NCBI GenBank assembly: GCA_040752795.1
Contig: JBFMGH010000264.1
Coordinates: 37,978-101,977 of the forward strand
Source of the DNA: Cyanobacteriota bacterium
Lineage (GTDB): Bacteria; Cyanobacteriota; Vampirovibrionia; JBFMGH01
Direction: 5' to 3'
DNA length: 64,000 nt
The notes beneath the pieces are model-generated. The model made no database searches. It saw only the letters and a program-made list of their open reading frames with translations, and was not told the DNA's origin. A program made the position numbers and the translations under genes. Numbering within the stretch: the first letter of the stretch is position 1; each line of letters starts with the position of its first letter. Below are positions 3,522 through 43,624 of this stretch, in pieces.

Positions 3522-3532
3522 AGGAGAAATTG

Positions 3533-3811
3533 ATGACTTTACAAACTTGTGGTCTCAGTAGACGTCAGCTGGAGACTATGTATAAAACTACTTATGAAAA
3601 AATGAAATTTGAAATAATTAGAGAGTATGGTAATGCACTCATATTACAGGGTAGGGCAAGAGATGTTGGCTCTCTTAGTGATGTTGAAAGAGATATGGAA
3701 GCTATGTGTGATGCTTATGCCAAATCTTTAATGAATATAACATCAAGAGTTATTGAAGCCAATAATAAAAAACTCTTAGAGGATTTTGAATCTATGAAAA
3801 AATCTCCTTAA
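3533..3811 (+). CDS. Small hypothetical protein (92 aa) co-transcribed at the end of the pil operon
   Basis: The ORF has a GAGGAG RBS 6 nt upstream of its ATG and lies 9 bp after the pilC stop. It is followed by a terminator hairpin. I see no recognisable motif. Confidence 0.4.
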   Translation: MTLQTCGLSRRQLETMYKTTYEKMKFEIIREYGNALILQGRARDVGSLSDVERDMEAMCDAYAKSLMNITSRVIEANNKKLLEDFESMKKSP

Positions 3812-5620: not shown

Positions 5621-6601
5621 GTGATTCCTGTACTAGTAAAAGAATTAGAAGGACTTGAGCAGCTTCCGTTTGATTTATACAATAAAAATGGCCGCTTGAT
5701 TTTTCGTTCAGGTGAAGTTCTGTCAGCTGGTAAAGTGTTGCAGCTTAGGTATATTGATGTTTTTAGAAAAACTGATGATGAAATACCGGTAGAGAAAAAA
5801 CCTGTTGAAGCTGTTCCTCCAAGTATAGATTGGGAAACTAAAGAAGAAACAAGACCTACCAAGGCGATTCTTTTTGATTCTCCACGAATTCATGAAATTA
5901 ATCCTGATTCTATTATTGACCCTCAATTACAGGTATCAATTAAAACTTCTGTGCATACACTTATTGATACTATGACAAGTAAAGAAATTCCAGACCCTGT
6001 TGTGTATAATGCAGCTAGAGATGAAATAGTTAACGAAGTGTTGGGTAGTGTTGATAAAGTTCATCACTTAAATCAGCTGAGGGTTTTTGATGATTATGAT
6101 TATTCTCACGCAGTTAACGTTTCTGTTTTAGCTGTTATGTTAGGATATAAATTGGGAATGACTGGTACTGGTTTGCGAACTCTCGCACTGGGATCCTTAT
6201 TGCATGATATTGGTAAAACGAGAATACCGAAGCAGATTTTGCATAAACCCGGTGCTCTGACTCCTAAAGAATATGAAATAGTTAAACTTCATGCCCCCTT
6301 AGGTTACAAAATAATAAAAGATGAATTAGGCTTGACTGAAGATATAGCAAGAATAGCATTGGAACATCAAGAAAAATTTGATGGAACTGGCTATCCTAAA
6401 GGGCTTTCTGGAGATTCTATTGATTCTATGGCCCATGTTGTTAGTGTTTGTGACGTTTATGATGCTTTGGTCTCAACAAAGGTATATTCAAACCCAAAAC
6501 CATCTCAAGATGCTTTGAAAATTATGTTAAACTATGGTAGTAGCTGGTTTAATCCATCAGTTTTATATAAATTTACTCATATGACTTCATTTAAGGAATA
6601 G
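5621..6601 (+). CDS. HD-GYP domain c-di-GMP phosphodiesterase, paralog 1 (GTG start)
   Basis: HD motif LLHDIGKTRIP and GYP motif DGTGYPKGL are present. The N-terminal ~50 aa domain is shared with the downstream paralog. Confidence 0.85.
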   Translation: MIPVLVKELEGLEQLPFDLYNKNGRLIFRSGEVLSAGKVLQLRYIDVFRKTDDEIPVEKKPVEAVPPSIDWETKEETRPTKAILFDSPRIHEINPDSIIDPQLQVSIKTSVHTLIDTMTSKEIPDPVVYNAARDEIVNEVLGSVDKVHHLNQLRVFDDYDYSHAVNVSVLAVMLGYKLGMTGTGLRTLALGSLLHDIGKTRIPKQILHKPGALTPKEYEIVKLHAPLGYKIIKDELGLTEDIARIALEHQEKFDGTGYPKGLSGDSIDSMAHVVSVCDVYDALVSTKVYSNPKPSQDALKIMLNYGSSWFNPSVLYKFTHMTSFKE

Positions 6602-6623: not shown

Positions 6624-7586
6624 TTGATCAGGGTTAATGTAAAAGAGCTGGAAGGAAAAAAGGTTTTAGAATATGACCTTTATACGGATAAAGGAAAACT
6701 TATCTGTCCTAGAGGTACACAATTAACTCCTGGTAAAATTCTTCAACTTAGCTATACAAAATTATTTAGACAGATTGAAGAGAATGTTCCTCAGCCTGAA
6801 CCAGAAAAAATTGAGCCTAAACCTGTTCATGTTGCTGTTGTAAAAGAACCAAGAAGCACTGAAATACTTGAAGAACCAGCTGACTGGGATTCTGTAATTG
6901 ATAAAAATGTTAAGGTGACTGTTCTGAAGTCTACCAGAGAATTTCTCTCTGATATAGAAGAAGGGAAATCTCCTGATGTAGCTATGTGTGAGGTCGTTAG
7001 AGATAAGCTGGTAGCAGAAGTAGCTGAAAAAGTTGAACAGGTCGATTATCTGGGTCAATTGAGGATGTTTGATGAGTATACTTATTCTCATAATGTTAAT
7101 GTTTCAGCATTAAGTGTTGCATTGGCGATGAAAATAGGAATGAAACAGAATGATATAAAAGATCTAGCATTAGCAACACTACTTCACGATATTGGTAAGA
7201 TGCGTATTCCTAAAGAAGTTCTTAATAAACCAGGTCGGCTTACTGATAAAGAATTTCAGGTAATGAAGTTACATGCTCAGCTTGGATTCCAGGTTATTAA
7301 AGAAGAGCTAAAATTGCCTTATAAGATCTCAAGAGTGGCATTAGAGCATCAGGAAAGATTTTCTGGTTCAGGGTATCCCAGGAATCTTAAAGGTGATGAA
7401 ATAGGTTTATTTTCTCAAATATGCGCTATAGCAGATGTATATGATGCTATATCGTCAAAACGTGTTTATAAGCCTGCCAGAACTTCTAAAGAAACTATTA
7501 AGATTATGTTAAACGAAGGTTCTGCTTCTTTTAATCCTTCTCTGTTATACAAGTTCGTTCATATGTGTAATTATTCTGACGAATAA
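6624..7586 (+). CDS. HD-GYP domain c-di-GMP phosphodiesterase, paralog 2 (TTG start)
   Basis: HD motif LLHDIGKMRIP and GYP motif SGSGYPRNL are present. It is about 50% identical to the upstream paralog, a tandem duplication. Confidence 0.85.
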   Translation: MIRVNVKELEGKKVLEYDLYTDKGKLICPRGTQLTPGKILQLSYTKLFRQIEENVPQPEPEKIEPKPVHVAVVKEPRSTEILEEPADWDSVIDKNVKVTVLKSTREFLSDIEEGKSPDVAMCEVVRDKLVAEVAEKVEQVDYLGQLRMFDEYTYSHNVNVSALSVALAMKIGMKQNDIKDLALATLLHDIGKMRIPKEVLNKPGRLTDKEFQVMKLHAQLGFQVIKEELKLPYKISRVALEHQERFSGSGYPRNLKGDEIGLFSQICAIADVYDAISSKRVYKPARTSKETIKIMLNEGSASFNPSLLYKFVHMCNYSDE

Positions 7587-7707
7587 ATTATGTATATAAA
7601 AACCAGATAATACTAAATAATGTAAAGATTTAACTTTACTACTCTTCACTTTCATAATCATAAGACGATAACGAAAATAGGTAAGTGTGTCCGTTAAGGG
7701 GTCATAA

Positions 7708-10700
7708 TTGAGTTCCGTAAATTATTTCGGAATCAGTAATTCCATCAATGCATGGGGGATTTATAGTCTATTTAAAACAAATAGTCTATCTATTAACAAT
7801 GATTTACAAAAATTAGAAACTTCTATGGCCCTTACTCTTGAAAATGAAGACAGGTATGTTTCTTCACAATCTCCGGTTTTAATGGGGCTTTATAGGGCAA
7901 TTCCTTCAGAGAGGGCAGAGCAACTTCTAAGCGAGGGTTATAGTGATGTTTCAGCTATTGTTAAAGCTGTTTCTGAGTATATGACCTCGATCGAAGATAC
8001 TGCTGTGTACTCTGAACCAACGGCTCAAAATGATAGAACTTTTAATATAAATGATCCTGCACCGAATACCTCTACCTATGATCTTGTTAATTTATACAAT
8101 AATACAGTTAATATTAATACTAATGCTGGTACTGATACAGTAAATCTTGGAGGAACGTATAATACTATTCAGGTCGATGTGGGTTTAGGTGATGATACAG
8201 TAAATGTTGATACTTCCAGTGCAAATGAGTTTACTATTGTCGGTGGCCCCGGTACCAATACAGTCAATATGTCTGGAAATGTAACGGACTATGCATTCCA
8301 GGATAACGGCGACAACACACTTACCATGACGGACACATACTCTGGGGCCACTGTTGTTATTGATACAAACATTGAACTGGTTAATTTTGCTGATGGATCA
8401 ACAATGACTTTTGATGGAACTGATATTACCATCAATTCTGCTGCAACTGGTGAGCAAATGTTAATTGATACAACCAATTCTTCTTATGTCCTAGATATGA
8501 ACAGTGGTGATGATACACTTGTTGTATCTGGTGTTGGTAATACAGTAGATGTTAATGTGAGTGCTGGTAATGATTTTGTTGTTGTTGATGGAACTAACAA
8601 TAATGTAAATATTCAGTTTGAAGATAAACAAGATACTCTCTATGTGGCAACAGGAAATAATAATATTGTTAATGTTGATGGAGGTGACTACACAGATTCT
8701 CTTATCCTTCAGGGTGACGTACTTGATTGGACTTTAGTAGGTAATACATATACACACAATACTACGGGAACAGCTGTAACTGTTAATGACATAGAAAATG
8801 TATATTTTGGACAACTTGTAGATGACCCGGCTGGAAGCTCTTCTAATCTGGATTATACAGCTCTAAATAACAGTGGTAATGTTGTTTATTTAAATGATGG
8901 TAATGACACTGTTGCTCTGGGTGGCACAAATAACTACATTCAACTTGATATGGGTAGTGGAACAAATACTGTTACCATCGATGACACAAATTATAACAAC
9001 TTTGTTCTCGCTGGAGGTAGCGGCACAGATACTATTAGCTTCATTGGTAACGTTGGAGATTATACTTTTCAGACAAATGACGATGGCACACTTACCATAA
9101 AAAATGCCAGTTCATTTGCTACAACCACCATCGACTCTAATATAGAAAACATTCTATTTGCAGATAATTCTTCTTTAGCTTTTAACGGAACAGACTTCTC
9201 TATTAAAACAACTATTAATGCTGATACGGTAAATATTACTGGTTCTAACAATACTGTTTTTATTGATACATACAATGGTGCTGATTCTGTTAGTATTACT
9301 GGAACAAATAACACTGTTAAACTTAATTTAGCTAACGATGACGATAGTGTTTATGTTGGAATTGGTGAAAACAATGATATTACAATAGATGGTGCTCATG
9401 GGGTTGATACACTTACTTTGCAGGGAATGGCTGCTGATTGGACACTTACAGGAACCCTGCCTGGTCAAACATACTATGAGAACATTTATTCTGGAACTAA
9501 AGTTACAATATTAACCAGCATAGATAATGTGCAGTTTGATAATGGTCTTGTAGTTTACGATACTCCCGGTATGGATAGCTTTATTAATGCTCTTGGTTAT
9601 AATGATACCAGTATTAATATAAACACTAATGATGGAGATGATACAGTATCTTTAGATGGAACAAATAATAATGTTACTGTAAACTTTCTGTCTGGAAACG
9701 ATTATGTCCATATTGACGATAGTACGAATAGTACATATTTTATTAATGGAGGCTCTGGAGAGGATACTGTCGTATTAAATGGTGTTATGGCTGATTATAA
9801 TATTGTTAATAATCCTGATGATACCATGACTATTACAAATACTATATCAGGTGCTGCTGTAACACTGGATCCATATCTTGTTGAAAATATAGTTCTTATG
9901 GATGGACCTATTCAGGGTAGAGTTGTTTTACGTGGAACTCCTCTAGATGACACATTCGATTTAACAGCATTCAATAATGAAACTATACAGGTTGATTTGA
10001 TGTCTGGAAATGATTTGTTAACTGTTGGTGGTACAAATAATGATATTGATTTAAATCTTGGTGCAGGTGATGATATTGTTAATATTGATGACTCTAACAG
10101 TAATATTTTCAATGTTAGTGGAGGCCTTGGTAATGATATAATAAATATGGCAGGAGTTTTAGGTGACTATACATTTACCGATAATGGAGATAGTACATTT
10201 ACACTTACTAATGTTATATCTGGTGCAGCTACTACTGTAGATTCGACCGTTGAAACAATAAATCTTGGAGATGGATCTGTATTATCTTATGATGGAAGCA
10301 CAATTACTATAACAGATGCTCCTGGTAGATCGAATACTTTTGATATGACAACTTACAGTAATTCGAGTTTTATTATCAACGCAAATGACCAGGATGATAT
10401 GGTTATTATTGGTGGTCTTAATAATGATATTACTGCTAACTTGAATTCTGGTAATAACACAGTTAATATAGATGACTCAAATATAGGAACGTATACTGTT
10501 AATGGAGGAACCGGAACTGATGTAATTAATATGGCTGGAAATCTATCTGATTACCAGTTTAATGATAATGGAGATAGTACATTTACACTTACTAATGTTA
10601 TATCAGGTGCTACAACTACAATTAATTCGACTGTAGAAACAATTAATTTGAATGATGGAACTGTTATTGGTTATGATGGTTCAACAATAACTATTACGGA

Positions 10701-13281
10701 TGGTCTGGGTAATTCCAGCAATATTGATCTATCTACTAGTAATAATACATCCTTTATTATAAATGCTGGAGATAGCGATGATGTGGTTAATCTTGCAGGA
10801 ACTAATAATAATGCAATAGTAAATCTTTCTTCTGGTACAAACACTTTAAATATTGATGATTCAAACAATAATACATTTGTGGTAAATGGGGGAGTGGGGA
10901 TTGATACAGCTAGTCTCTCCGGGGTTTTAGCTGATTATACGTTTACTGATAATGGTGATAATACGTTAACGGTTACTAATACAGGGTCAGGTGCTACAAC
11001 TACAATTGATATTGCTGTAGAAAATATTAATTTGTCTGATGGCTCTATTGTTAACTTTGATGGTTCATCTATAACAATTACTGATGCTCCGGGTAATGCT
11101 AGTAATTTTGATCTAACTGGTGGTGTTAATACTGTATTTACCATTAATGCTAATGATAATAATGATACAGTTGATCTTGGTGGTTTAAATAATGATGTTA
11201 CTGTTAATTTAAATTCTGGTAATAATACTGTTAATGTTGATGATACAAATAATAATACTTTTGTTATAAGTGGTGGTAGTGGTACTGATGTTGTTAATAT
11301 GTCTGGTAATGTTTCTGATTATACTTTTATAGATAATGGAGATAACACACTTACTTTAACAAATAATATTTCTGGAGCTACTACAACTATTGATACATCT
11401 ATTGAAACAGTAACATTAGGGGATAATGTTAATGTTAATTTTGATGGTTCTACTATTACTCTAACTGATGCTCTTGGATCTTCTACTACATTTGATCTAA
11501 CAGCGCAAAACAATTCTAATATGATTATTAATACAGGTAATATGGATGATATAGTTAATCTTGGTGGCTCTAATAATGATATGACAGTCAACTTAATCTC
11601 TGGCAATAATAATGTAAATATTTCTGACCAGAATTTTAATACGTTTATTGTCAATGGTGGTACGGCTACAGATACGGTTAACTTTACTGCGGGTCTTGAT
11701 TATACATTAACAGATAATGGTGATACTACTTATACAGTTACTAATAATTTGTCAGGTGCTAATACAACATTTGGTACTTCAATTGAAACTATTTCCTTTA
11801 CGGATATACCTGGATCCTCTTCTACTTTTTCAGTTAATGATAGTTTTGCGGCCAGTATTATTGTAAATGCAGGTAATAATAACGATACTCTGAATCTGGG
11901 AGGTGCTGGAAATGATATTACGGCTAACTTAAATAGTGGTACAAACGTTGTAAATGTTGATGATACAGTTTCTGCTACATATAATATAAATGGTGGTAGC
12001 GGTACTGATTCTATTAATTTGACTGGTATTTTATCTGATTATTCATTCCAGGATAATGGAGATAGTACACTTACAATAACAAATACACTTTCTGGTGCAA
12101 CAGTAACAGTTGATGCTAATATTGAAACAATTAACCTGGCTGATGGTAAAACTTTAAGCTATGACGGTACTGATCTAACTATTAATGATACACCTGGAAG
12201 TTCTTCTGCATTTGATATAACAACTTTTACAAATACTTCATTTATTATTAATACAGATAATCAGAATGATATTGTTGACCTTGGTGGAAATAATAACACG
12301 GCGGTAGTAAATCTGGCTTCTGGTGTAAAGACTGTAAACATTGATGATTCTAACAATAATACATTTGTAGTTAATGGTGGTGTAGGAACAGATACAATTA
12401 ATTTATTTGGAAACATTTCTGACTATTCATTCCAGGATAACGGAGATAGTACACTTACAATAACAAACACACTTTCTGGTGCAACAGTAACAGTTGATGC
12501 TAATATTGAAACAATTAACCTGGCAGATGGTAAAACCTTAAATTATGATGGTACAGATTTAACAATAAATGATTTACCTGGAAGTGCTACAAACTTTGAT
12601 ATAACATCTAATGCAAATACCTCTTTTATTATTAATGCTGGTGATCAAAATGATATAGTTGATCTTGGTGGAAATAATAACACGGCGGTAGTAAATCTGA
12701 CTTCTGGTGTAAACACTGTAAACATTGATGATTCTAACAGCAATACATTTGTAGTTAATGGTGGCGTGGGAACAGATACAATTAATATGAGTGCTAATTT
12801 CTCTGATTATATATTGATGGATAATCTTGATGGAACTCTAACCATTACTAACAATATTTCAGGAGCTACTACCACAATTGATTCTTCTATAGAAACGGTT
12901 AATTTTAATGACTCTTATTCAATATCTTATGATGGATCTGATATTACTTTAAGTGGTTTTACAGCTGGTAATGATAACCTTTCTATTGATGGAATTGATA
13001 CAACATATAATTTTGTAACTACAGATGCAGGTATGGATAATATAACTATAGATGGTATTAATAATAATGTTAATATAGATTTAGGAACCGAAGACGATTC
13101 GGTATACGTAGCAGTAGGCAATAACAATGTTATAAATATTGATGGTAGCGGCCAGACAGATACACTTACATTAGAAGGTGCAGCACTAGATTGGAACCTG
13201 GTAGGTAGTACATATACTCATACTGTTTCTGGTACATCAGTTACTATTTCAAATCTTGAAAATGTCCTCTTTACAGCCTGA
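7708..13281 (+). CDS. Giant (1857 aa) Asn/Thr/Asp/Gly-rich, cysteine-free repeat protein with RTX-like calcium-binding nonapeptides. Probable secreted or surface adhesin-like beta-roll/beta-helix protein
   Basis: A single ORF with about 11 tandem 128-aa modules, each carrying GGxGxDx[IV]x (for example NGGVGTDTINL, NGGSGTDSINL, SGGLGNDIINM). There are three related cap modules (GDVLDWTLVG..IENVYF; GMAADWTLTG; GAALDWNLVG..LENVLF), the last at the extreme C-terminus. There is no N-terminal signal peptide. The start codon is uncertain (TTG 7708 immediately after a stop; the first ATG lies about 40 codons downstream). Confidence 0.75.
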   Translation: MSSVNYFGISNSINAWGIYSLFKTNSLSINNDLQKLETSMALTLENEDRYVSSQSPVLMGLYRAIPSERAEQLLSEGYSDVSAIVKAVSEYMTSIEDTAVYSEPTAQNDRTFNINDPAPNTSTYDLVNLYNNTVNINTNAGTDTVNLGGTYNTIQVDVGLGDDTVNVDTSSANEFTIVGGPGTNTVNMSGNVTDYAFQDNGDNTLTMTDTYSGATVVIDTNIELVNFADGSTMTFDGTDITINSAATGEQMLIDTTNSSYVLDMNSGDDTLVVSGVGNTVDVNVSAGNDFVVVDGTNNNVNIQFEDKQDTLYVATGNNNIVNVDGGDYTDSLILQGDVLDWTLVGNTYTHNTTGTAVTVNDIENVYFGQLVDDPAGSSSNLDYTALNNSGNVVYLNDGNDTVALGGTNNYIQLDMGSGTNTVTIDDTNYNNFVLAGGSGTDTISFIGNVGDYTFQTNDDGTLTIKNASSFATTTIDSNIENILFADNSSLAFNGTDFSIKTTINADTVNITGSNNTVFIDTYNGADSVSITGTNNTVKLNLANDDDSVYVGIGENNDITIDGAHGVDTLTLQGMAADWTLTGTLPGQTYYENIYSGTKVTILTSIDNVQFDNGLVVYDTPGMDSFINALGYNDTSININTNDGDDTVSLDGTNNNVTVNFLSGNDYVHIDDSTNSTYFINGGSGEDTVVLNGVMADYNIVNNPDDTMTITNTISGAAVTLDPYLVENIVLMDGPIQGRVVLRGTPLDDTFDLTAFNNETIQVDLMSGNDLLTVGGTNNDIDLNLGAGDDIVNIDDSNSNIFNVSGGLGNDIINMAGVLGDYTFTDNGDSTFTLTNVISGAATTVDSTVETINLGDGSVLSYDGSTITITDAPGRSNTFDMTTYSNSSFIINANDQDDMVIIGGLNNDITANLNSGNNTVNIDDSNIGTYTVNGGTGTDVINMAGNLSDYQFNDNGDSTFTLTNVISGATTTINSTVETINLNDGTVIGYDGSTITITDGLGNSSNIDLSTSNNTSFIINAGDSDDVVNLAGTNNNAIVNLSSGTNTLNIDDSNNNTFVVNGGVGIDTASLSGVLADYTFTDNGDNTLTVTNTGSGATTTIDIAVENINLSDGSIVNFDGSSITITDAPGNASNFDLTGGVNTVFTINANDNNDTVDLGGLNNDVTVNLNSGNNTVNVDDTNNNTFVISGGSGTDVVNMSGNVSDYTFIDNGDNTLTLTNNISGATTTIDTSIETVTLGDNVNVNFDGSTITLTDALGSSTTFDLTAQNNSNMIINTGNMDDIVNLGGSNNDMTVNLISGNNNVNISDQNFNTFIVNGGTATDTVNFTAGLDYTLTDNGDTTYTVTNNLSGANTTFGTSIETISFTDIPGSSSTFSVNDSFAASIIVNAGNNNDTLNLGGAGNDITANLNSGTNVVNVDDTVSATYNINGGSGTDSINLTGILSDYSFQDNGDSTLTITNTLSGATVTVDANIETINLADGKTLSYDGTDLTINDTPGSSSAFDITTFTNTSFIINTDNQNDIVDLGGNNNTAVVNLASGVKTVNIDDSNNNTFVVNGGVGTDTINLFGNISDYSFQDNGDSTLTITNTLSGATVTVDANIETINLADGKTLNYDGTDLTINDLPGSATNFDITSNANTSFIINAGDQNDIVDLGGNNNTAVVNLTSGVNTVNIDDSNSNTFVVNGGVGTDTINMSANFSDYILMDNLDGTLTITNNISGATTTIDSSIETVNFNDSYSISYDGSDITLSGFTAGNDNLSIDGIDTTYNFVTTDAGMDNITIDGINNNVNIDLGTEDDSVYVAVGNNNVINIDGSGQTDTLTLEGAALDWNLVGSTYTHTVSGTSVTISNLENVLFTA
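8080..13260 (+). repeat. Intragenic tandem repeat array with a 384-bp period (about 11-13 copies). Some copies are nearly identical at the DNA level
   Basis: For example, 12041-12190 and 12425-12574 are almost identical, and 10181-10250 matches 10565-10634, both offset by exactly 384 bp. The period equals the 128-aa protein module. Confidence 0.8.
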
Positions 13282-13399: not shown

Positions 13400-13412
13400 T
13401 AATAATACCCTT

Positions 13413-13486
13413 CGGGATGTAGCGCAGCTTGGTAGCGCACCTCGCTTGGGACGAGGGGGCCGCTGGTTCGAATCCAGTCATCCCGA
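13413..13486 (+). tRNA. tRNA-Pro (anticodon TGG)
   Basis: Cloverleaf: acceptor CGGGATG/CATCCCG, D-arm AGCGCAGCTTGGTAGCGCA, anticodon stem-loop CCTCG-CTTGGGA-CGAGG, T-loop GGTTCGAATCC. Confidence 0.85.
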
Positions 13487-13514
13487 TTCTCTTAAAATAA
13501 AATAATATAAACAG

Positions 13515-13587
13515 GCGGGTGTAGCTCAGTTGGTAGAGCGCTAGCCTTCCAAGCTAGTTGTCGCGAGTTCGAACCTCGTCGCCCGCT
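13515..13587 (+). tRNA. tRNA-Gly (anticodon TCC)
   Basis: Acceptor GCGGGTG/CGCCCGC, D-arm AGCTCAGTTGGTAGAGC, anticodon stem-loop CTAGC-CTTCCAA-GCTAG, T-loop AGTTCGAAC. Confidence 0.85.
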
Positions 13588-13595
13588 TTTATTGA

Positions 13596-13672
13596 GGCGA
13601 GTGTAGCCAAGAGGTTAAGGCCCCGGATTGTGGTTCCGGTATTCGTGGGTTCGAGTCCCATCACTCGCCCCA
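13596..13672 (+). tRNA. tRNA-His (anticodon GTG) with G-1 and an encoded CCA
   Basis: An extra 5' G pairs with discriminator C, the tRNA-His hallmark. Anticodon stem-loop CCGGA-TTGTGGT-TCCGG, T-loop GGTTCGAGTCC, and 3' CCA is encoded, followed by a T6 run. Confidence 0.85.
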
Positions 13673-13695
13673 CTTTTTTGTATAAGGACTATATA

Positions 13696-14451
13696 ATGTC
13701 TAATTATAAAACTGATGCTATTGTCCTTAGAACATATGATTTTAAAGATTATGACAGAATAATTGTACTCTATTCTAAAGATAGAGGTTTAATAAGAGCA
13801 GTTGCCAAAGGTGTTAAAAACCCAAAATCTAAGCTGAGAGGCAGGTTAGAGCCTCTTATGGCTTCTGGCTTGATTCTTTATGAGGGTAGAAATCTTGATA
13901 GTATTTCTCAATGTGATACTATAGAATCTTTTAAACATCTGAGAAAAGATCTTAAAAAGATTACTTATGCCATGTACTTTGCTGAACTTGCTTCAGCTTT
14001 TGGTGTTGAGAATGATCCTCAATCTGAATATTTTTATAATTTTATTTTTAATAGCCTAAAAGAGCTTGAAACGTCCGATGAAAATGTTATATTAGAAACA
14101 TTAATTGTTAATTATAGTTATAAACTAATTTCCTGGGCTGGTTATAAACCAGTTTTTGATTATTGTGGGCAATGCAGATCTAAAATTTTAACTTCAACTG
14201 ATATATGCTTCAATACTGATTCAGGTATGGCAGTATGTCCTGATTGTAGTAGTAAAAATGCCAATTTAACCTGTCTGCCCCAGAATCTTTATCAATACTT
14301 ACTTAACCTCGCTGGTATTTCAAGTTTTCCGTTTAATTTAGATGTAAATACTGTTACAAAAGCGCATAGTCTGTTATTTGAGTACATTGACAAAAAATCG
14401 AACTATAAATTAAAAACACCGAAGTTGATAGAAACTCTATGTTTAAGTTAA
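13696..14451 (+). CDS. recO: DNA repair protein RecO
   Basis: The N-terminal OB-fold region (AIVLRTYDFKDYDRIIVLYSKDRGLIRAVAKGVKNPKS) and the C-terminal Cys4 zinc motif (CGQC...CPDC) fit RecO. The real start is ATG 13696; the longer ORF 13558.. would overlap the tRNAs. Confidence 0.85.
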   Translation: MSNYKTDAIVLRTYDFKDYDRIIVLYSKDRGLIRAVAKGVKNPKSKLRGRLEPLMASGLILYEGRNLDSISQCDTIESFKHLRKDLKKITYAMYFAELASAFGVENDPQSEYFYNFIFNSLKELETSDENVILETLIVNYSYKLISWAGYKPVFDYCGQCRSKILTSTDICFNTDSGMAVCPDCSSKNANLTCLPQNLYQYLLNLAGISSFPFNLDVNTVTKAHSLLFEYIDKKSNYKLKTPKLIETLCLS

Positions 14452-25917: not shown

Positions 25918-27456
25918 ATGCTCTCTCAAATAAATTTAAATTCATATAATACTATACCTACATATAAAAAAGGCTTAACAAGAAAGCCGGAGGCTATTGT
26001 TACAAAGAATTCTCAACTAAATAGTGATGTTAAATTTACAGGATTAGGTAGCTTTATAACTAGCCCTGTTATGTCAATGAGTGTATTACCTAAATTACAA
26101 GACCAGGCATTAAAACAAGCATACATTGAAGTCAATAAATTTGCTGATGCACAGGGCAAAGCAGATTTAAAATTTTTGTTAGATAATGGAAAGCTCTTAT
26201 CAAATGATGCCGATGATGGCAGTAGTACATTATTAAATCTTGCCAGAATAGTTAGAGAGCCCAGAGCTAATGGCTTAGACTCAAAAATAATTCTGAATAG
26301 TACTTTAAGAGCACTGGCTAACCCTTATTCTATAACTCAGAACTTTGGTAAACTTTCACCTGAAGTTTCTAATATGATTATGAATGATCCAAATTATTCT
26401 AAAGTAGCTGGTGCAGTAGGCCTTGATACTAATCAGAATGCTAATGTCGCTTTTACCGCACAGAAGAAATCACAACAGGTTCAGCAAAATCAATCTAATT
26501 TACCGGCTGCGTATAATGTAGAAGCCAGTGGCACCTGTGTTGCAGCCAGTATGGAATTTAATTTAGCTGATAAACGCCCAGCTGAATTTGCTAGATATGC
26601 TGCTGACCTTACAAGCCCAAAAATGGCTGTAGAAGAAGTTTTCAACTTTAGCGATATTGATCCAGATCCTCTTTCTGCAATGTATTGGTTGGATCAATTT
26701 AATGTAGAGTATGATGCAGATAATTTCACCACAGGCAAAGTTATTTTAAGACCAGATCAAGCAGCTATTTATAGAGCTATTTCTCAGAGTAAATCAAGAT
26801 CTGAAGGCTCTCGTTCTCCTTTAGATGTATTAATGCAGTCTACATTTATGCAACTTGGTAGTGCTAAATCTTATAATTCTTTAACAGACATAAGAACTGG
26901 AGGATTCAATCAGTCTGATCGTGGTTTAACTGAGTTTGAAAAAAGTATGGCTGAAGCAATTGTCGATGATAAAGGTGGTAAGTCTTCAGTTACTTATCAA
27001 GTCGTTGACGATAACGCATTCTTAGTTGGTTACAACAAAAATTACCAGGATACTTTAATGGATATTATTAATTCATTAAAATCCGGGTTTAATGTAATTG
27101 TTGGTATTACTGAGACAGATGCTAATGCACAAATTACAGGTGGACACGAAATAACAATAGTAGGAAGTAAATTAGGCCAGGATGGGAAATTATACTTCAT
27201 TTGTAATGATACTGATGATGATATTGCCAGACCTATTGAACTATCAGCTAATGAATTAATTCCGAAAATTCATCACGCAGGTATTCCAAACGTAGTTATA
27301 AATAAGAATCCTCAACCAGTCCAAGAGAAACCTATAATAATTCAAAATCCTCCACAGCTTAATGCGGCTCTTGCTACAGTTCCAGTTCAGCAATCAAATT
27401 TTCAACCAGCTTTAAATAATAGTCTTAATCAGTCAAGACTTAATCTTGTTGCATAA
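25918..27456 (+). CDS. Large hypothetical protein (512 aa), Asn/Gln-rich, with a possible Cys/His hydrolase core
   Basis: It has no signal peptide. The motif SGTCVAASMEFNL resembles the nucleophile-Cys helix of C39/papain-like peptidases, and GGHEITIVG is a candidate His. This is weak, unverified similarity. Confidence 0.5.
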   Translation: MLSQINLNSYNTIPTYKKGLTRKPEAIVTKNSQLNSDVKFTGLGSFITSPVMSMSVLPKLQDQALKQAYIEVNKFADAQGKADLKFLLDNGKLLSNDADDGSSTLLNLARIVREPRANGLDSKIILNSTLRALANPYSITQNFGKLSPEVSNMIMNDPNYSKVAGAVGLDTNQNANVAFTAQKKSQQVQQNQSNLPAAYNVEASGTCVAASMEFNLADKRPAEFARYAADLTSPKMAVEEVFNFSDIDPDPLSAMYWLDQFNVEYDADNFTTGKVILRPDQAAIYRAISQSKSRSEGSRSPLDVLMQSTFMQLGSAKSYNSLTDIRTGGFNQSDRGLTEFEKSMAEAIVDDKGGKSSVTYQVVDDNAFLVGYNKNYQDTLMDIINSLKSGFNVIVGITETDANAQITGGHEITIVGSKLGQDGKLYFICNDTDDDIARPIELSANELIPKIHHAGIPNVVINKNPQPVQEKPIIIQNPPQLNAALATVPVQQSNFQPALNNSLNQSRLNLVA

Positions 27457-40839: not shown

Positions 40840-41967
40840 TTGCAAATATTATCGAATATCCAGAAAAACCTGGCTAGTGTAGTTGTTTTTAATAGGTTTT
40901 TTTCTCTTTCATTATTAATAGTTTTATTGATATACTTTGCCCAAATTACCTATGAAACCAATGTTGTAACAATTGGGTTACTTATATTTGCTACTGTAAT
41001 ACTTCTATTTAACCTATTATTAATTGAAATAGTAGGTCAAATAATACGTAAAAAGTCTATTTTAACTAATGAAATTTGCCTGTGGCTTGGTAAAGTTATA
41101 ACAATATCAACTACAGTTGTTGTTACAATAACAACTATTGCTACTGGAAACTTACATGTAGCGGGCTTTTTTACTATTCCTATAATTATATCAGCTTTTT
41201 TAGCCGATGGATTTCTCAATAAAATAGGTATTTTTTCTATTGTTTTCTCATTGATATACTACCATTCGACCCTGTTAACTAATCAAATATTTATTAATAA
41301 CCTTGTTTTTTATGATCCCTCTGCTATTGTATGTGCTGGAAATATTCTATGCATAATTTTGCTGGCTGGAATAATTGTTAATAAAACAAAACAAACAAGT
41401 CAAAAAGCTAATATACTTCAATCAATGGCTACTACTGATGTACTTACCGGATTAATTAACCGTAGATATTTTGATAGAAGAATTACGGAAGAAGTTTCTC
41501 GTTCTAAAAGGCATAGTACAAACTTAACTTTAGCACTATTTGATATTGATCACTTTAAGCGTATTAATGATACATATGGGCATACTATTGGAGACAAAAT
41601 TTTAAAAGAGCTAGGTGAGCTTGTCTTAAACAATACAAGGGAATCAGATATCTCAGCCCGATATGGAGGAGAAGAATTTGCACTTATTCTTCCGGAAACT
41701 ACACAGATGGAAGCTTCTGATTTACTTGAACGTCTCAGACAACTTATTGAAGGGCATACGTTTAATAAGGATGATGTACCAGTAATAGTAACTGTTAGCG
41801 TTGGAATTGCCCAATTTGATTATGAAGATTCAATAGAAGACTTTATTGAAAAAGCAGATGCCTCATTGTATCAGGCAAAAAGAACAGGTAGAAATAAAGT
41901 AGTATTTGGTACCTTTACTACTCCAAAATTAAATCTTCAAAAAGCCAATAATTATCAGAATGTATAA
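40840..41967 (+). CDS. Membrane-bound diguanylate cyclase (GGDEF domain)
   Basis: About 6 N-terminal TM helices precede a GGDEF domain with an intact RYGGEEF active site and an RxxD-region (RESD). Confidence 0.85.
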   Translation: MQILSNIQKNLASVVVFNRFFSLSLLIVLLIYFAQITYETNVVTIGLLIFATVILLFNLLLIEIVGQIIRKKSILTNEICLWLGKVITISTTVVVTITTIATGNLHVAGFFTIPIIISAFLADGFLNKIGIFSIVFSLIYYHSTLLTNQIFINNLVFYDPSAIVCAGNILCIILLAGIIVNKTKQTSQKANILQSMATTDVLTGLINRRYFDRRITEEVSRSKRHSTNLTLALFDIDHFKRINDTYGHTIGDKILKELGELVLNNTRESDISARYGGEEFALILPETTQMEASDLLERLRQLIEGHTFNKDDVPVIVTVSVGIAQFDYEDSIEDFIEKADASLYQAKRTGRNKVVFGTFTTPKLNLQKANNYQNV

Positions 41968-42510: not shown

Positions 42511-42873
42511 ATGTATAAAACGGATTCAAATAAATTAAATAACGAGAAACAACTTTTGTCTCATAAAAATTCTCTTATGGACATGCAAAAAGACTTATCT
42601 TTTAAACATAAACAAGTTAAAGATCTTGTTTCTGATTTGTATTATGAGGTAAATAAAAAAAGCTTTTTATTAGAAGATGAAACAATAGAAGATTCTCAAA
42701 GATCTATGTTAAAATACGATTTCACCCTCACTAAAAGAGAACTGGAGAAAGCAATATTTGAAAAAGAACTATTATGTAAAGACTTGAATATACTCCAGAC
42801 CAGATTAAAGACTATAGAAAATGAAATCATTAAATCAAAACCTTGGTGGTACAGATATTTTAGGCCTATATAA
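42511..42873 (+). CDS. Small cytoplasmic coiled-coil protein, hypothetical
   Basis: The RBS gaggt is upstream of ATG 42511, and the sequence is predicted helical/coiled coil. The longer ORF from 42415 lacks an RBS. Confidence 0.35.
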   Translation: MYKTDSNKLNNEKQLLSHKNSLMDMQKDLSFKHKQVKDLVSDLYYEVNKKSFLLEDETIEDSQRSMLKYDFTLTKRELEKAIFEKELLCKDLNILQTRLKTIENEIIKSKPWWYRYFRPI

Positions 42874-43624
42874 TAAGTTAGGATTAAAACCTGACCAGAA
42901 AATTGTTGCTGTTTGGGGATATCCAGACCCCTGTAAATTAAGTGAAATATTGAAACAGTTTCCTGGGCACCTTCTTGTTGACTTGGATATATGTTATGAT
43001 GCACCTGAATCAAAAGTGTTGCCTGAAAACTATTGTCAAATAATAACTAACATTATAGACAATGCTCTAGTTTTAAGAGATAAAATAGATATTATAGTTG
43101 CCTCTGTCGGCGAAGAAAAGTGTGATCAGGGTAGATTCGCTGCATATTTATTAGAACATATGGGTTTGAATGTTGTAAAAACTAAAATTACTAAATTGAT
43201 AGTGCCACCGGTTAAACCTTTAATTGCTACCAGTCAATTGCCTTTAAAGGAAAAGGTGTTGTTGATTATGGATTCAATGTTGAATCCTGATTTGCTCCAA
43301 CACAAAAGTATTACAACTTGCAGTCCTACTCATGGTTTCTGGGGAGTGCCCCCAAATGATTTAAGTCTTTTAGATCTTTTTCCAGATACAACACATGTTT
43401 ATGGCTGGACAAGGTGTGTGGAAATGAAGTGCCCTACAGATATTGAGTTAGAAATGTTTGTTGATAAATCTATACCAACTGTTTTTTTTGCGCAAACTTT
43501 TTGTGCCAAAATGCAATTGGCGAAATATTTAGCTCAAAAACACGAAGGCCTTTATGTAGATATTGATGACTATATGAGTGTTTCTGTAAGGGCTAAGATA
43601 GAAGCTTTTTTGAGGTTATCGTAG
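42821..43624 (+). CDS. Hypothetical protein (267 aa), Cys-containing, function unknown
   Basis: The ORF overlaps the upstream gene by 53 nt in another frame. I see no recognisable motif, and the start is uncertain. Confidence 0.4.
   Translation: MKSLNQNLGGTDILGLYNKLGLKPDQKIVAVWGYPDPCKLSEILKQFPGHLLVDLDICYDAPESKVLPENYCQIITNIIDNALVLRDKIDIIVASVGEEKCDQGRFAAYLLEHMGLNVVKTKITKLIVPPVKPLIATSQLPLKEKVLLIMDSMLNPDLLQHKSITTCSPTHGFWGVPPNDLSLLDLFPDTTHVYGWTRCVEMKCPTDIELEMFVDKSIPTVFFAQTFCAKMQLAKYLAQKHEGLYVDIDDYMSVSVRAKIEAFLRLS

Follow-up and report, generated by a model that had tools for sequence, protein, structure and literature searches.

In a 64,000-nucleotide stretch of contig JBFMGH010000264.1 from a Cyanobacteriota bacterium (hereafter the window), we analyzed the gene at positions 7708-13281 of the plus strand, which encodes a large repeat protein. 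Its 14 repeat units are each predicted with high confidence to consist of a short parallel beta-roll and, after it, a cap subdomain of beta-strands, as in one RTX block of Bordetella CyaA. The best overall explanation, to which we give about an even chance, is that the gene product lies outside the cell or on the surface of a Melainabacteria/Vampirovibrionia-type bacterium as a rod-shaped and extremely acidic protein, which would be RTX-block-like, exported by a type I secretion system (T1SS) and folded by calcium. Melainabacteria/Vampirovibrionia are non-photosynthetic relatives of cyanobacteria, and NCBI taxonomy places class Vampirovibrionia in the Cyanobacteriota/Melainabacteria group.

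The open reading frame (ORF) starts with a TTG codon, which is backed by an AAGGGG Shine-Dalgarno sequence at 7696-7701, 6 nt ahead of it, and a stop codon lies directly 5' of this TTG. The TTGAGTT at the gene start is kept in two homologous loci (L001 and L005), and the N-terminal alignment showed that the repeat protein and its homolog P0006 share one N-terminus. The TTG start is sound. The protein contains no cysteine and is rich in asparagine (278), threonine (269), aspartate (205) and glycine (186); together with serine, these residues make up 59% of the sequence. There are 236 acidic residues (D+E) versus 18 basic ones (K+R), and the net charge is about -218. The existence of the ORF and its repeat structure were confirmed, as were the lack of cysteine over all 1857 residues and the C-terminal ending ..LENVLFTA, both of which had been described in the initial annotation, an earlier reading of the same DNA from its letters.

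Self-comparison of the protein showed residue similarity peaks at lags of 128 aa (0.30) and 256 aa (0.22), and Tandem Repeats Finder reported a 384-nt period in the gene, so that the module periodicity proposed earlier is visible in both protein and DNA. We built a hidden Markov model (HMM) from 7 modules, and found 11 strong modules with scores of 101-195, located at aa 117-244, 374-501, 619-737, 743-870, 871-998, 999-1126, 1127-1254, 1255-1368 (a short match), 1367-1494, 1495-1622 and 1623-1750. The same model matched three caps weakly (12-40 bits, about aa 245-372, 501-618 and 1752-1857), and because it finds them at low score, we regard the caps C1, C2 and C3 as divergent copies of the module. 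The protein thus consists of 14 repeat units, namely 11 modules of 128 aa and 3 divergent caps, in the order N-terminal region, A1, C1, A2, C2, A3', eight modules and C3 (Table 1). This order is kept in the homologs; the variant type of A3' recurs in P0002, P0003 and P0005, and the C3 ending SGTSVTISNLENVLFTA is also found in P0003, P0005, P0006 and P0007. The initial annotation had described about 11 tandem 128-aa modules bracketed by three caps, the last of them at the C-terminus. The 11 modules, their period, the three caps and the terminal position of C3 stand, but strict tandem order is limited to the last eight modules, and C1 and C2 alternate with the first three modules. A GGxGxDx[IV]x motif had likewise been ascribed to each module. 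The strict form GGxGxD[x][IVLMFA]x occurs in 9 copies, spaced by 128 aa within arrays, at most one per module and none in tandem, whereas 2-3 further modules carry degenerate versions (GGPGTN, GGTATD and the like). The conserved SDYxFxDNGDxTxTxTN.. block noticed earlier was reproduced by the consensus from 44 family modules (DYxFxDNGDxTLTLTNxxSGATTTIDxxVENIxFxDG..DGxxxTITD).

The repeat region lies in a metagenome-assembled genome, and the two stretches in it that resemble each other most share 89% identity over 753 nt, which raises the question of whether it could be a collapsed or chimeric artefact, or the ORF non-coding. The gene contains no Ns, its longest exact DNA repeat is 56 nt, and the modules are 58-76% identical as DNA. 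In addition, the frame is open across 5.6 kb, eight independent homologs have the same architecture, and the fold is predicted with very high confidence. Collapse of the repeats during assembly, which the initial annotation had named as a danger to its claim, is therefore unlikely, and an artefact of any of these kinds is extremely improbable; the exact module copy number alone is uncertain.

AlphaFold2 (AF2) was applied to aa 1496-1857, covering two modules and C3; its input alignment had 22 rows, made up of orthologous and paralogous units. The results showed an all-beta model, ordered to the last residue, with a mean predicted local distance difference test score (pLDDT) of 95 and a predicted template modelling score (pTM) of 0.87. 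The closest structure matches were solved RTX blocks and RTX-carrying lipases and adhesins, followed by weaker matches to AlgE R-modules, the RsaA surface-layer (S-layer) protein and a calcium-dependent antifreeze beta-helix; Foldseek agreed with the RTX-block picture. The predicted model thus contains the parallel beta-roll with a C-terminal capping structure that marks the RTX family, and the beta-roll expected in the initial annotation is borne out by a model resembling solved RTX blocks. In each 128-aa module, the roll is predicted to have about six short strands and the cap after it six strands, and in the array modules the cap subdomain starts at the single GGxGxDxUx. From the strand spacing of 9-11 residues together with the sequence, the roll appears to be widened ('half-RTX'), with about 20-21 residues per turn. 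Its units would alternate between about 9 and 11 residues, with one canonical motif per 128 aa; one face, formed by units 1, 3 and 5, would keep RTX-like Gly/Asp(Asn) turns (AGDQND, SGxN, GGxGxD), whereas the turns of units 2 and 4 on the opposite face would be longer and non-canonical (LGGxxN.., DDSxxN..). Where the predicted roll strands are joined by turns, the conserved module residues D28, G34, N37, G46, N51, G64, G65 and D69 are found within or next to these turns. This placement in the models, which contain no ions, is compatible with metal sites.

The whole repeat protein had no match in Pfam or NCBIfam, the module profile matched PDB sequences only by chance, and a profile search of a 5.8-billion-protein database with alignment A1 returned nothing, probably because its word index is limiting. 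With the module profile as query, an exhaustive HMM search detected 751 proteins at E<=1e-3. Most matches beyond the protein's own family cover only profile positions ~62-117, which correspond to GGxGxD and the cap, and the matched stretch after GGxGxD reads sG..DY.f.dngDGt.t.tn..sG....id..vE.i.FaDG. In P0013, P0017, P0021, P0029 and P0038, many Pfam RTX nonapeptides are located directly upstream of the matched unit, and several such RTX-bearing matches also hit the NCBIfam RTX_toxin, serralysin and SapA models. The residue-level alignment showed that the single canonical nonapeptide of the module corresponds to the last RTX repeat of these relatives, and in the roll part P0011 shows the same alternating unit pattern. 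These results support a real homology, as judged from the profile alignments, between the module and the last RTX repeat with its flank in HemolysinCabind proteins. Because remote homology and predicted fold both point there, we interpret the module as an RTX block in miniature, whose beta-roll is degenerate and widened.

RTX proteins are unfolded at low cytoplasmic calcium and exported C-terminus first by a type I system (PMC3034196, PMC6891781, PMC9120197). The folding of RTX blocks depends on calcium and on a C-terminal cap, and it ratchets T1SS export (PMC9120197, PMC6891781). By analogy with this behaviour, the repeat protein, built of a short helical N-terminal region and 14 consecutive RTX-block-like units, would stay unfolded in the low-calcium cytoplasm, leave the cell C-terminus first through a T1SS encoded elsewhere in the genome, and then fold extracellularly, starting at the C-terminal cap and proceeding towards the N-terminus, while calcium binds its Gly/Asp turns. 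The end product would be a stiff acidic fibre or rod, for which a role as an adhesin or surface-layer component is most likely; we infer T1SS export and calcium binding from the same analogy. The absence of cysteine, the acidity and the lack of a signal peptide, transmembrane segment or anchor are typical of T1SS/RTX substrates, and the terminal position of C3, with its ending kept in five family members, fits the C-terminus-first folding scheme.

The N-terminal region was searched for export signals. Its head is Ser/Thr/Asn-rich with an invariant W16 and is probably disordered (AF2 pLDDT <50 for aa 1-64), and it is followed by a conserved helical core (..P.L..LY+.IP.E+AEQLL..G....A...A..EY..; pLDDT 55-74 for helices 67-97). 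This region had no Pfam or NCBIfam match. It has no hydrophobic segment, the highest 19-residue Kyte-Doolittle window in the first ~63 residues being 0.6, and no signal peptide, transmembrane segment, LPxTG, PEP-CTERM or lipobox was detected in the protein. The statement in the initial annotation that there is no Sec signal peptide and no sortase or anchor motif therefore holds, and the protein shows the RTX-family trait of being acidic, Cys-poor and devoid of an N-terminal signal peptide. A double-glycine leader was rejected, as the N-terminal alignment shows no conserved GG. A relationship to flagellins was also rejected, since Flagellin_N (PF00669) and Flagellin_C (PF00700) are absent and the C-terminus is beta; the N-terminal 110 aa used as a query found none of the flagellin-type relatives described below. 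The C-terminal end E-N-V-L-F-T-A loosely resembles the acidic-plus-hydrophobic ends of protease and lipase T1SS substrates, and remote matches end in a loosely similar way (..SDLVFA and ..NDFLV).

Several results weigh against T1SS export and calcium-dependent folding. As the model is ordered up to its last residue, there is no room for an unstructured C-terminal signal like that of HlyA or CyaA; every module contains the IENVLFT[AIL] that also forms the C-terminus, and the clade of P0002, P0004 and P0008 ends differently (..YDQLLPLS). No T1SS-type ABC, HlyD or TolC domain was found in the 30 window ORFs scanned, which comprise every ORF longer than ~310 aa, in agreement with the initial annotation, and the ~10-kb flanks of five homologous loci also yielded no T1SS genes. 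The RTX family is defined by tandem arrays of Gly/Asp-rich nonapeptides GGxGxDxUx (PMC3034196, PMC6891781). The 9 strict motifs of the repeat protein are all isolated, with no pair 9 residues apart, and it matches neither PF00353 (HemolysinCabind), even at E<=1, nor the NCBIfam RTX models; because of this, calcium binding is plausible, yet not guaranteed. The earlier description of the protein as RTX-like with a beta-roll thus agrees with its predicted fold and remote homology, but the defining repeats are absent. As judged from its sequence, the protein falls outside the RTX family in the definition used by Pfam and the reviews, whereas sequence and model together allow it to be assigned to the RTX-block structural class with good confidence.

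Compared with known systems, the closest counterpart is formed by RTX blocks IV-V of CyaA from Bordetella pertussis (PDB 6sus, 5cvw, 9p6c, 7rah), which contain 8-10 tandem GGxGxDxUx repeats with 18 residues per turn. The repeat protein has one canonical nonapeptide per module and apparently ~20-21-residue turns of alternating 9/11 units, and its sequence identity to these blocks is 11-16%; it also lacks the toxin, acylation and hydrophobic domains and the disordered C-terminal signal of CyaA. Giant T1SS adhesins (the Aeromonas hydrophila large adhesion protein, PDB 9cse; MpIBP RIV, PDB 3p4g; the LapA class) have bacterial immunoglobulin-like (BIg) extender repeats and one RTX region near the C-terminus, whereas all 14 units of the repeat protein are RTX-block-like and no Big or Cadherin Pfam matches were found in it. 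At their N-terminus these adhesins also possess a retention module that contains a LapG site, and the repeat protein shows neither this module nor a di-alanine site. Oscillin, SwmA and Sll1951 (HLP) resemble the repeat protein in their related phylum-level lineage, similar size and Gly/Asp-rich calcium-type repeats. Sll1951 has 1741 aa and oscillin 46 repeats; the three proteins are described as having Gly/Asp-rich, typically nonapeptide repeats, and their roles are in extracellular S-layers or fibrils (PMC3034196). No sequence match to these three proteins was obtained, and they are set apart from the repeat protein by their published description.

The unit composed of RTX repeats and a 'DY cap' (P0017, P0021, P0029; NCBIfam SapA ~325-408; the SMc04171 family) aligns significantly to profile positions 59-117, and the common part reads GGxGxD-TVxLsG-xxDY-f-dng-DGt-t-tn...G....i..vE.i.FaDG. 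Elsewhere this unit, which itself has no Pfam model, follows Pfam-recognised tandem nonapeptides, whereas in the repeat protein it follows a degenerate roll. Giant flagellins (P0157, P0161, P0177 and others) share the RTX-like unit with the repeat protein, in an exposed hypervariable position, but have Flagellin_N/Flagellin_C helical domains, of which the repeat protein has neither. Among the relatives of the outgroup P0010, P0155-P0186 include many ~1300-aa proteins with Flagellin_N and Flagellin_C and a HemolysinCabind or DUF3060 centre; by their domain content, they are giant flagellins with an RTX-like exposed domain. The context of P0010 itself showed no secretion genes specific to it, and a TPS/ShlB two-partner pair 4-10 kb away is probably unrelated.

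The repeat protein has only 8 relatives among 5.8 billion proteins (40-49% identity, 1041-2131 aa), one of which is named 'beta strand repeat-containing protein [Vampirovibrionia bacterium]'. A scan of the representative genomes in GTDB gave two weak unrelated matches and no family member. Complete members are 1132-2131 aa long and differ in length through module number. Between genomes the protein is 42-48% identical, versus 53-96% for ten neighbours, and is by far the fastest-evolving in the block. Fast divergence and varying module number are typical of exposed surface proteins, and both fit a surface-exposed protein under diversifying pressure.

As the initial annotation had noted, the gene follows a pilus and HD-GYP block, with PilB/PilT/PilC, purH and two HD-GYP genes upstream. 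The same gene order was found in all six loci examined, the window included, as far as the contigs reach: PilB, PilT, PilC, a small ORF, purH (opposite strand), HD-GYP, HD-GYP, the repeat-protein gene, recO, MFS, GT28, GT2 and TPR, with three tRNA genes between the repeat-protein gene and recO in the window. Because housekeeping genes share this block, the synteny reflects genome relatedness and is no evidence of functional coupling to the pilus or HD-GYP genes. The HD-GYP pair (5621-6601 and 6624-7586) consists of tandem paralogs of 326 and 320 aa with HD..GYP motifs; each has a ~150-aa N-terminal domain without assignment and no receiver domain, and the pair is kept in all six loci. A GGDEF diguanylate cyclase gene lies at 40840-41967, ~27 kb downstream of the repeat-protein gene, and together with the HD-GYP pair shows that cyclic di-GMP (c-di-GMP) signalling is present in the genome.

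Upstream of the gene we found a three-part DNA signature (Table 1), which is unique in the window and kept in six otherwise unalignable intergenic regions (the window, L001 at ~9945-10012, L002, L003, L004 and L005); its third block reads GTA(A/T)..GTGTG across loci. A riboswitch or leader RNA was rejected, as Rfam gave no match at E<=10 and RNAalifold predicted 0 pairs. For the same reasons we take the signature as a DNA-level element, probably a dedicated promoter or operator. Its CGATA(A/C) resembles a sigma-28-type (group-3 sigma) -10 element; all loci have CGATA, but only 2/6 have a correctly spaced TAAA as -35. No plus-strand terminator was predicted between the HD-GYP genes and the repeat-protein ORF. 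The block GTAAGTGTG is the reverse complement of CACACTTAC, with minus-strand copies at 8316, 9087 and 11346 and ~9 one-mismatch copies inside the ORF. An antisense relation to the module codons CACACTTAC (..TLT..) was rejected, as exact copies are few (1-3 per gene in the four genes checked), and the complementarity is probably a coincidence of codon usage.

The GTG inside the upstream motif opens an 8-codon mini-ORF (MCPLRGHN and a stop, 7685-7711), whose TGA stop overlaps the TTG start of the repeat-protein ORF (TTGA). The same GTG is in frame in L002 and L003 and called as the start (MC...), and in L001 and L005 an upstream TTG/ATG gives 'LGKCV..'. The 'GKCV' and 'MC..' N-termini of homologs were considered as a lipobox or true N-terminus and rejected, because a single DNA motif, translated in three different frames, accounts for them and the start of the window gene is preceded by a stop codon. 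From these readings, the N-terminal extensions of several homologs look like gene-calling artefacts.

S-layers and motility fibrils are formed by cyanobacterial RTX proteins (PMC3034196), and the repeat protein may be, instead of an adhesin, a surface protein like SwmA, oscillin and Sll1951; it would be assembled into a coat or an array of fibrils, bridged by calcium and possibly glycosylated, which acts together with type IV pili. The phylogenetic neighbourhood and the Asn/Thr/Ser richness make this a serious alternative, though on balance a rather improbable one: three tRNAs, recO and an MFS gene lie between the gene and the glycosyltransferases, the synteny is uninformative because it takes in housekeeping genes, and the RsaA match is much weaker than the RTX-block matches. 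The initial annotation had suggested a c-di-GMP-controlled adhesin, which in its LapA-type form would be retained at the surface or released according to the c-di-GMP level set by the HD-GYP pair. Two HD-GYP genes with both motifs lie directly upstream on the same strand in six loci, no terminator is predicted in between, and a GGDEF gene is present, but adjacency alone speaks for the control itself and carries little weight, as purH, recO, the tRNAs and the glycosyltransferases are equally syntenic. The gene also has its own conserved upstream signature, no LapD/LapG-type genes were found among the ORFs scanned, and the first ~140 residues contain no Ala-Ala and hence no LapG-type site. We consider this form of control very unlikely.

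It is also conceivable that the protein is not a T1SS substrate, being exported by another route or serving inside the cell as a calcium-independent beta-solenoid scaffold. The lack of nearby T1SS genes, of a disordered C-terminal signal and of canonical tandem RTX repeats would agree with this; the RTX-like unit also occurs in proteins exported otherwise, such as the ~1300-aa flagellins with an RTX-like centre, and the upstream CGATA(A/C) resembles a sigma-28-type -10 element. Such a case is nevertheless quite unlikely, as the protein lacks Flagellin_N/C domains and its N-terminus does not resemble that of flagellins, the -35 TAAA is found in so few loci, and a charge of -218 without cysteine or signal peptide is hard to square with Sec routes or a cytoplasmic role. 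An unlikely but more far-reaching idea is that the family defines a 'half-RTX' block architecture of its own, with RTX turns on one face of the widened roll, one nonapeptide per 128-aa block and 14 blocks stacked; its folding and export would perhaps be non-classical, lacking a free C-terminal signal and possibly bypassing a T1SS, and it might serve as a lineage-specific attachment fibre of Vampirovibrionia-type bacteria (e.g. for prey or host contact) under its own promoter signature beside the pilus and HD-GYP genes. The evidence as a whole leads us to prefer the RTX-block-like, T1SS-exported and calcium-folded surface protein.

Table 1. Features of the repeat-protein gene and its upstream region (positions of the window)
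Feature	Position	Strand	Description	Evidence
DNA signature	7621..7689	+	three parts: TGTAAA (7621-7626), 38-39 nt, CGATA (7666-7670), 8-10 nt, GTAAGTGTG (7681-7689)	invariant blocks in six loci
Repeat-protein ORF	7708..13281	+	complete, 1857 aa + stop	GenBank MEW5820168.1, 'hypothetical protein AB1782_08235 [Cyanobacteriota bacterium]'
N-terminal region	7708..8013	+	aa 1-102	N-terminal alignment; AF2
Module A1	8014..8439	+	aa 103-244	HMM score 125; AF2 pLDDT 80-92
Cap C1	8440..8823	+	aa 245-372, divergent module with longer roll, end ..DSLILQGDVLDWTLVGNTYTHNTTGTAVTVNDIENVYF	weak HMM match
Module A2	8824..9207	+	aa 373-500	HMM score 117
Cap C2	9208..9561	+	aa 501-618	weak HMM match
Variant module A3'	9562..9933	+	aa 619-742, core ADYNIVNNPDD.., end altered	HMM score 101
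Unbroken tandem array	9934..12960	+	aa 743-1751, 8 modules	7 x 128 aa, one ~113 aa (1255-1367)
C-terminal cap C3	12961..13278	+	aa 1752-1857, final beta-strand ..SGTSVTISNLENVLFTA	pLDDT 93-98 to last residue

Other genes of the window were also inspected. Directly 3' of the repeat-protein gene is a cluster of tRNA-Pro(TGG), tRNA-Gly(TCC) and tRNA-His(GTG) at 13412-13672. The listed recO ORF (13558-14451) overlaps two of these tRNAs, and because the RecO_N match begins at residue 47, its true start is most likely the ATG at 13696. The first ORF (28-1128) matches only the C-terminal part of PilB (T2SSE positions 109-370 and a zinc ribbon); in the homologous loci the corresponding product is an MshEN+T2SSE protein of 664-687 aa, so the window begins within pilB. 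A 93-aa ORF (3530-3811) lies directly after pilC; it has 88-93 aa in all homologous loci, has no Pfam match on record in these five loci, and is not a pilin. The ORFs at 25918-27456 (512 aa) and 42821-43624 (267 aa) had no Pfam match at E<=0.01.

Large repetitive surface proteins with calcium-type beta-rolls are common in diderm bacteria, and no new kind of system is revealed here. What the analysis describes is a lineage-restricted family, invisible to domain databases, that appears to be built entirely from minimal RTX-like blocks, and for a protein annotated only as 'hypothetical protein' the RTX-block assignment is a useful re-annotation. It also indicates that profile and fold searches can recover RTX-like proteins missed by motif-based annotation. 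As a natural minimal RTX block, with one canonical repeat and a cap in 128 aa, the module could aid studies of calcium-driven folding, and the whole protein is a candidate major surface, adhesion or S-layer protein for these uncultured non-photosynthetic relatives of cyanobacteria.

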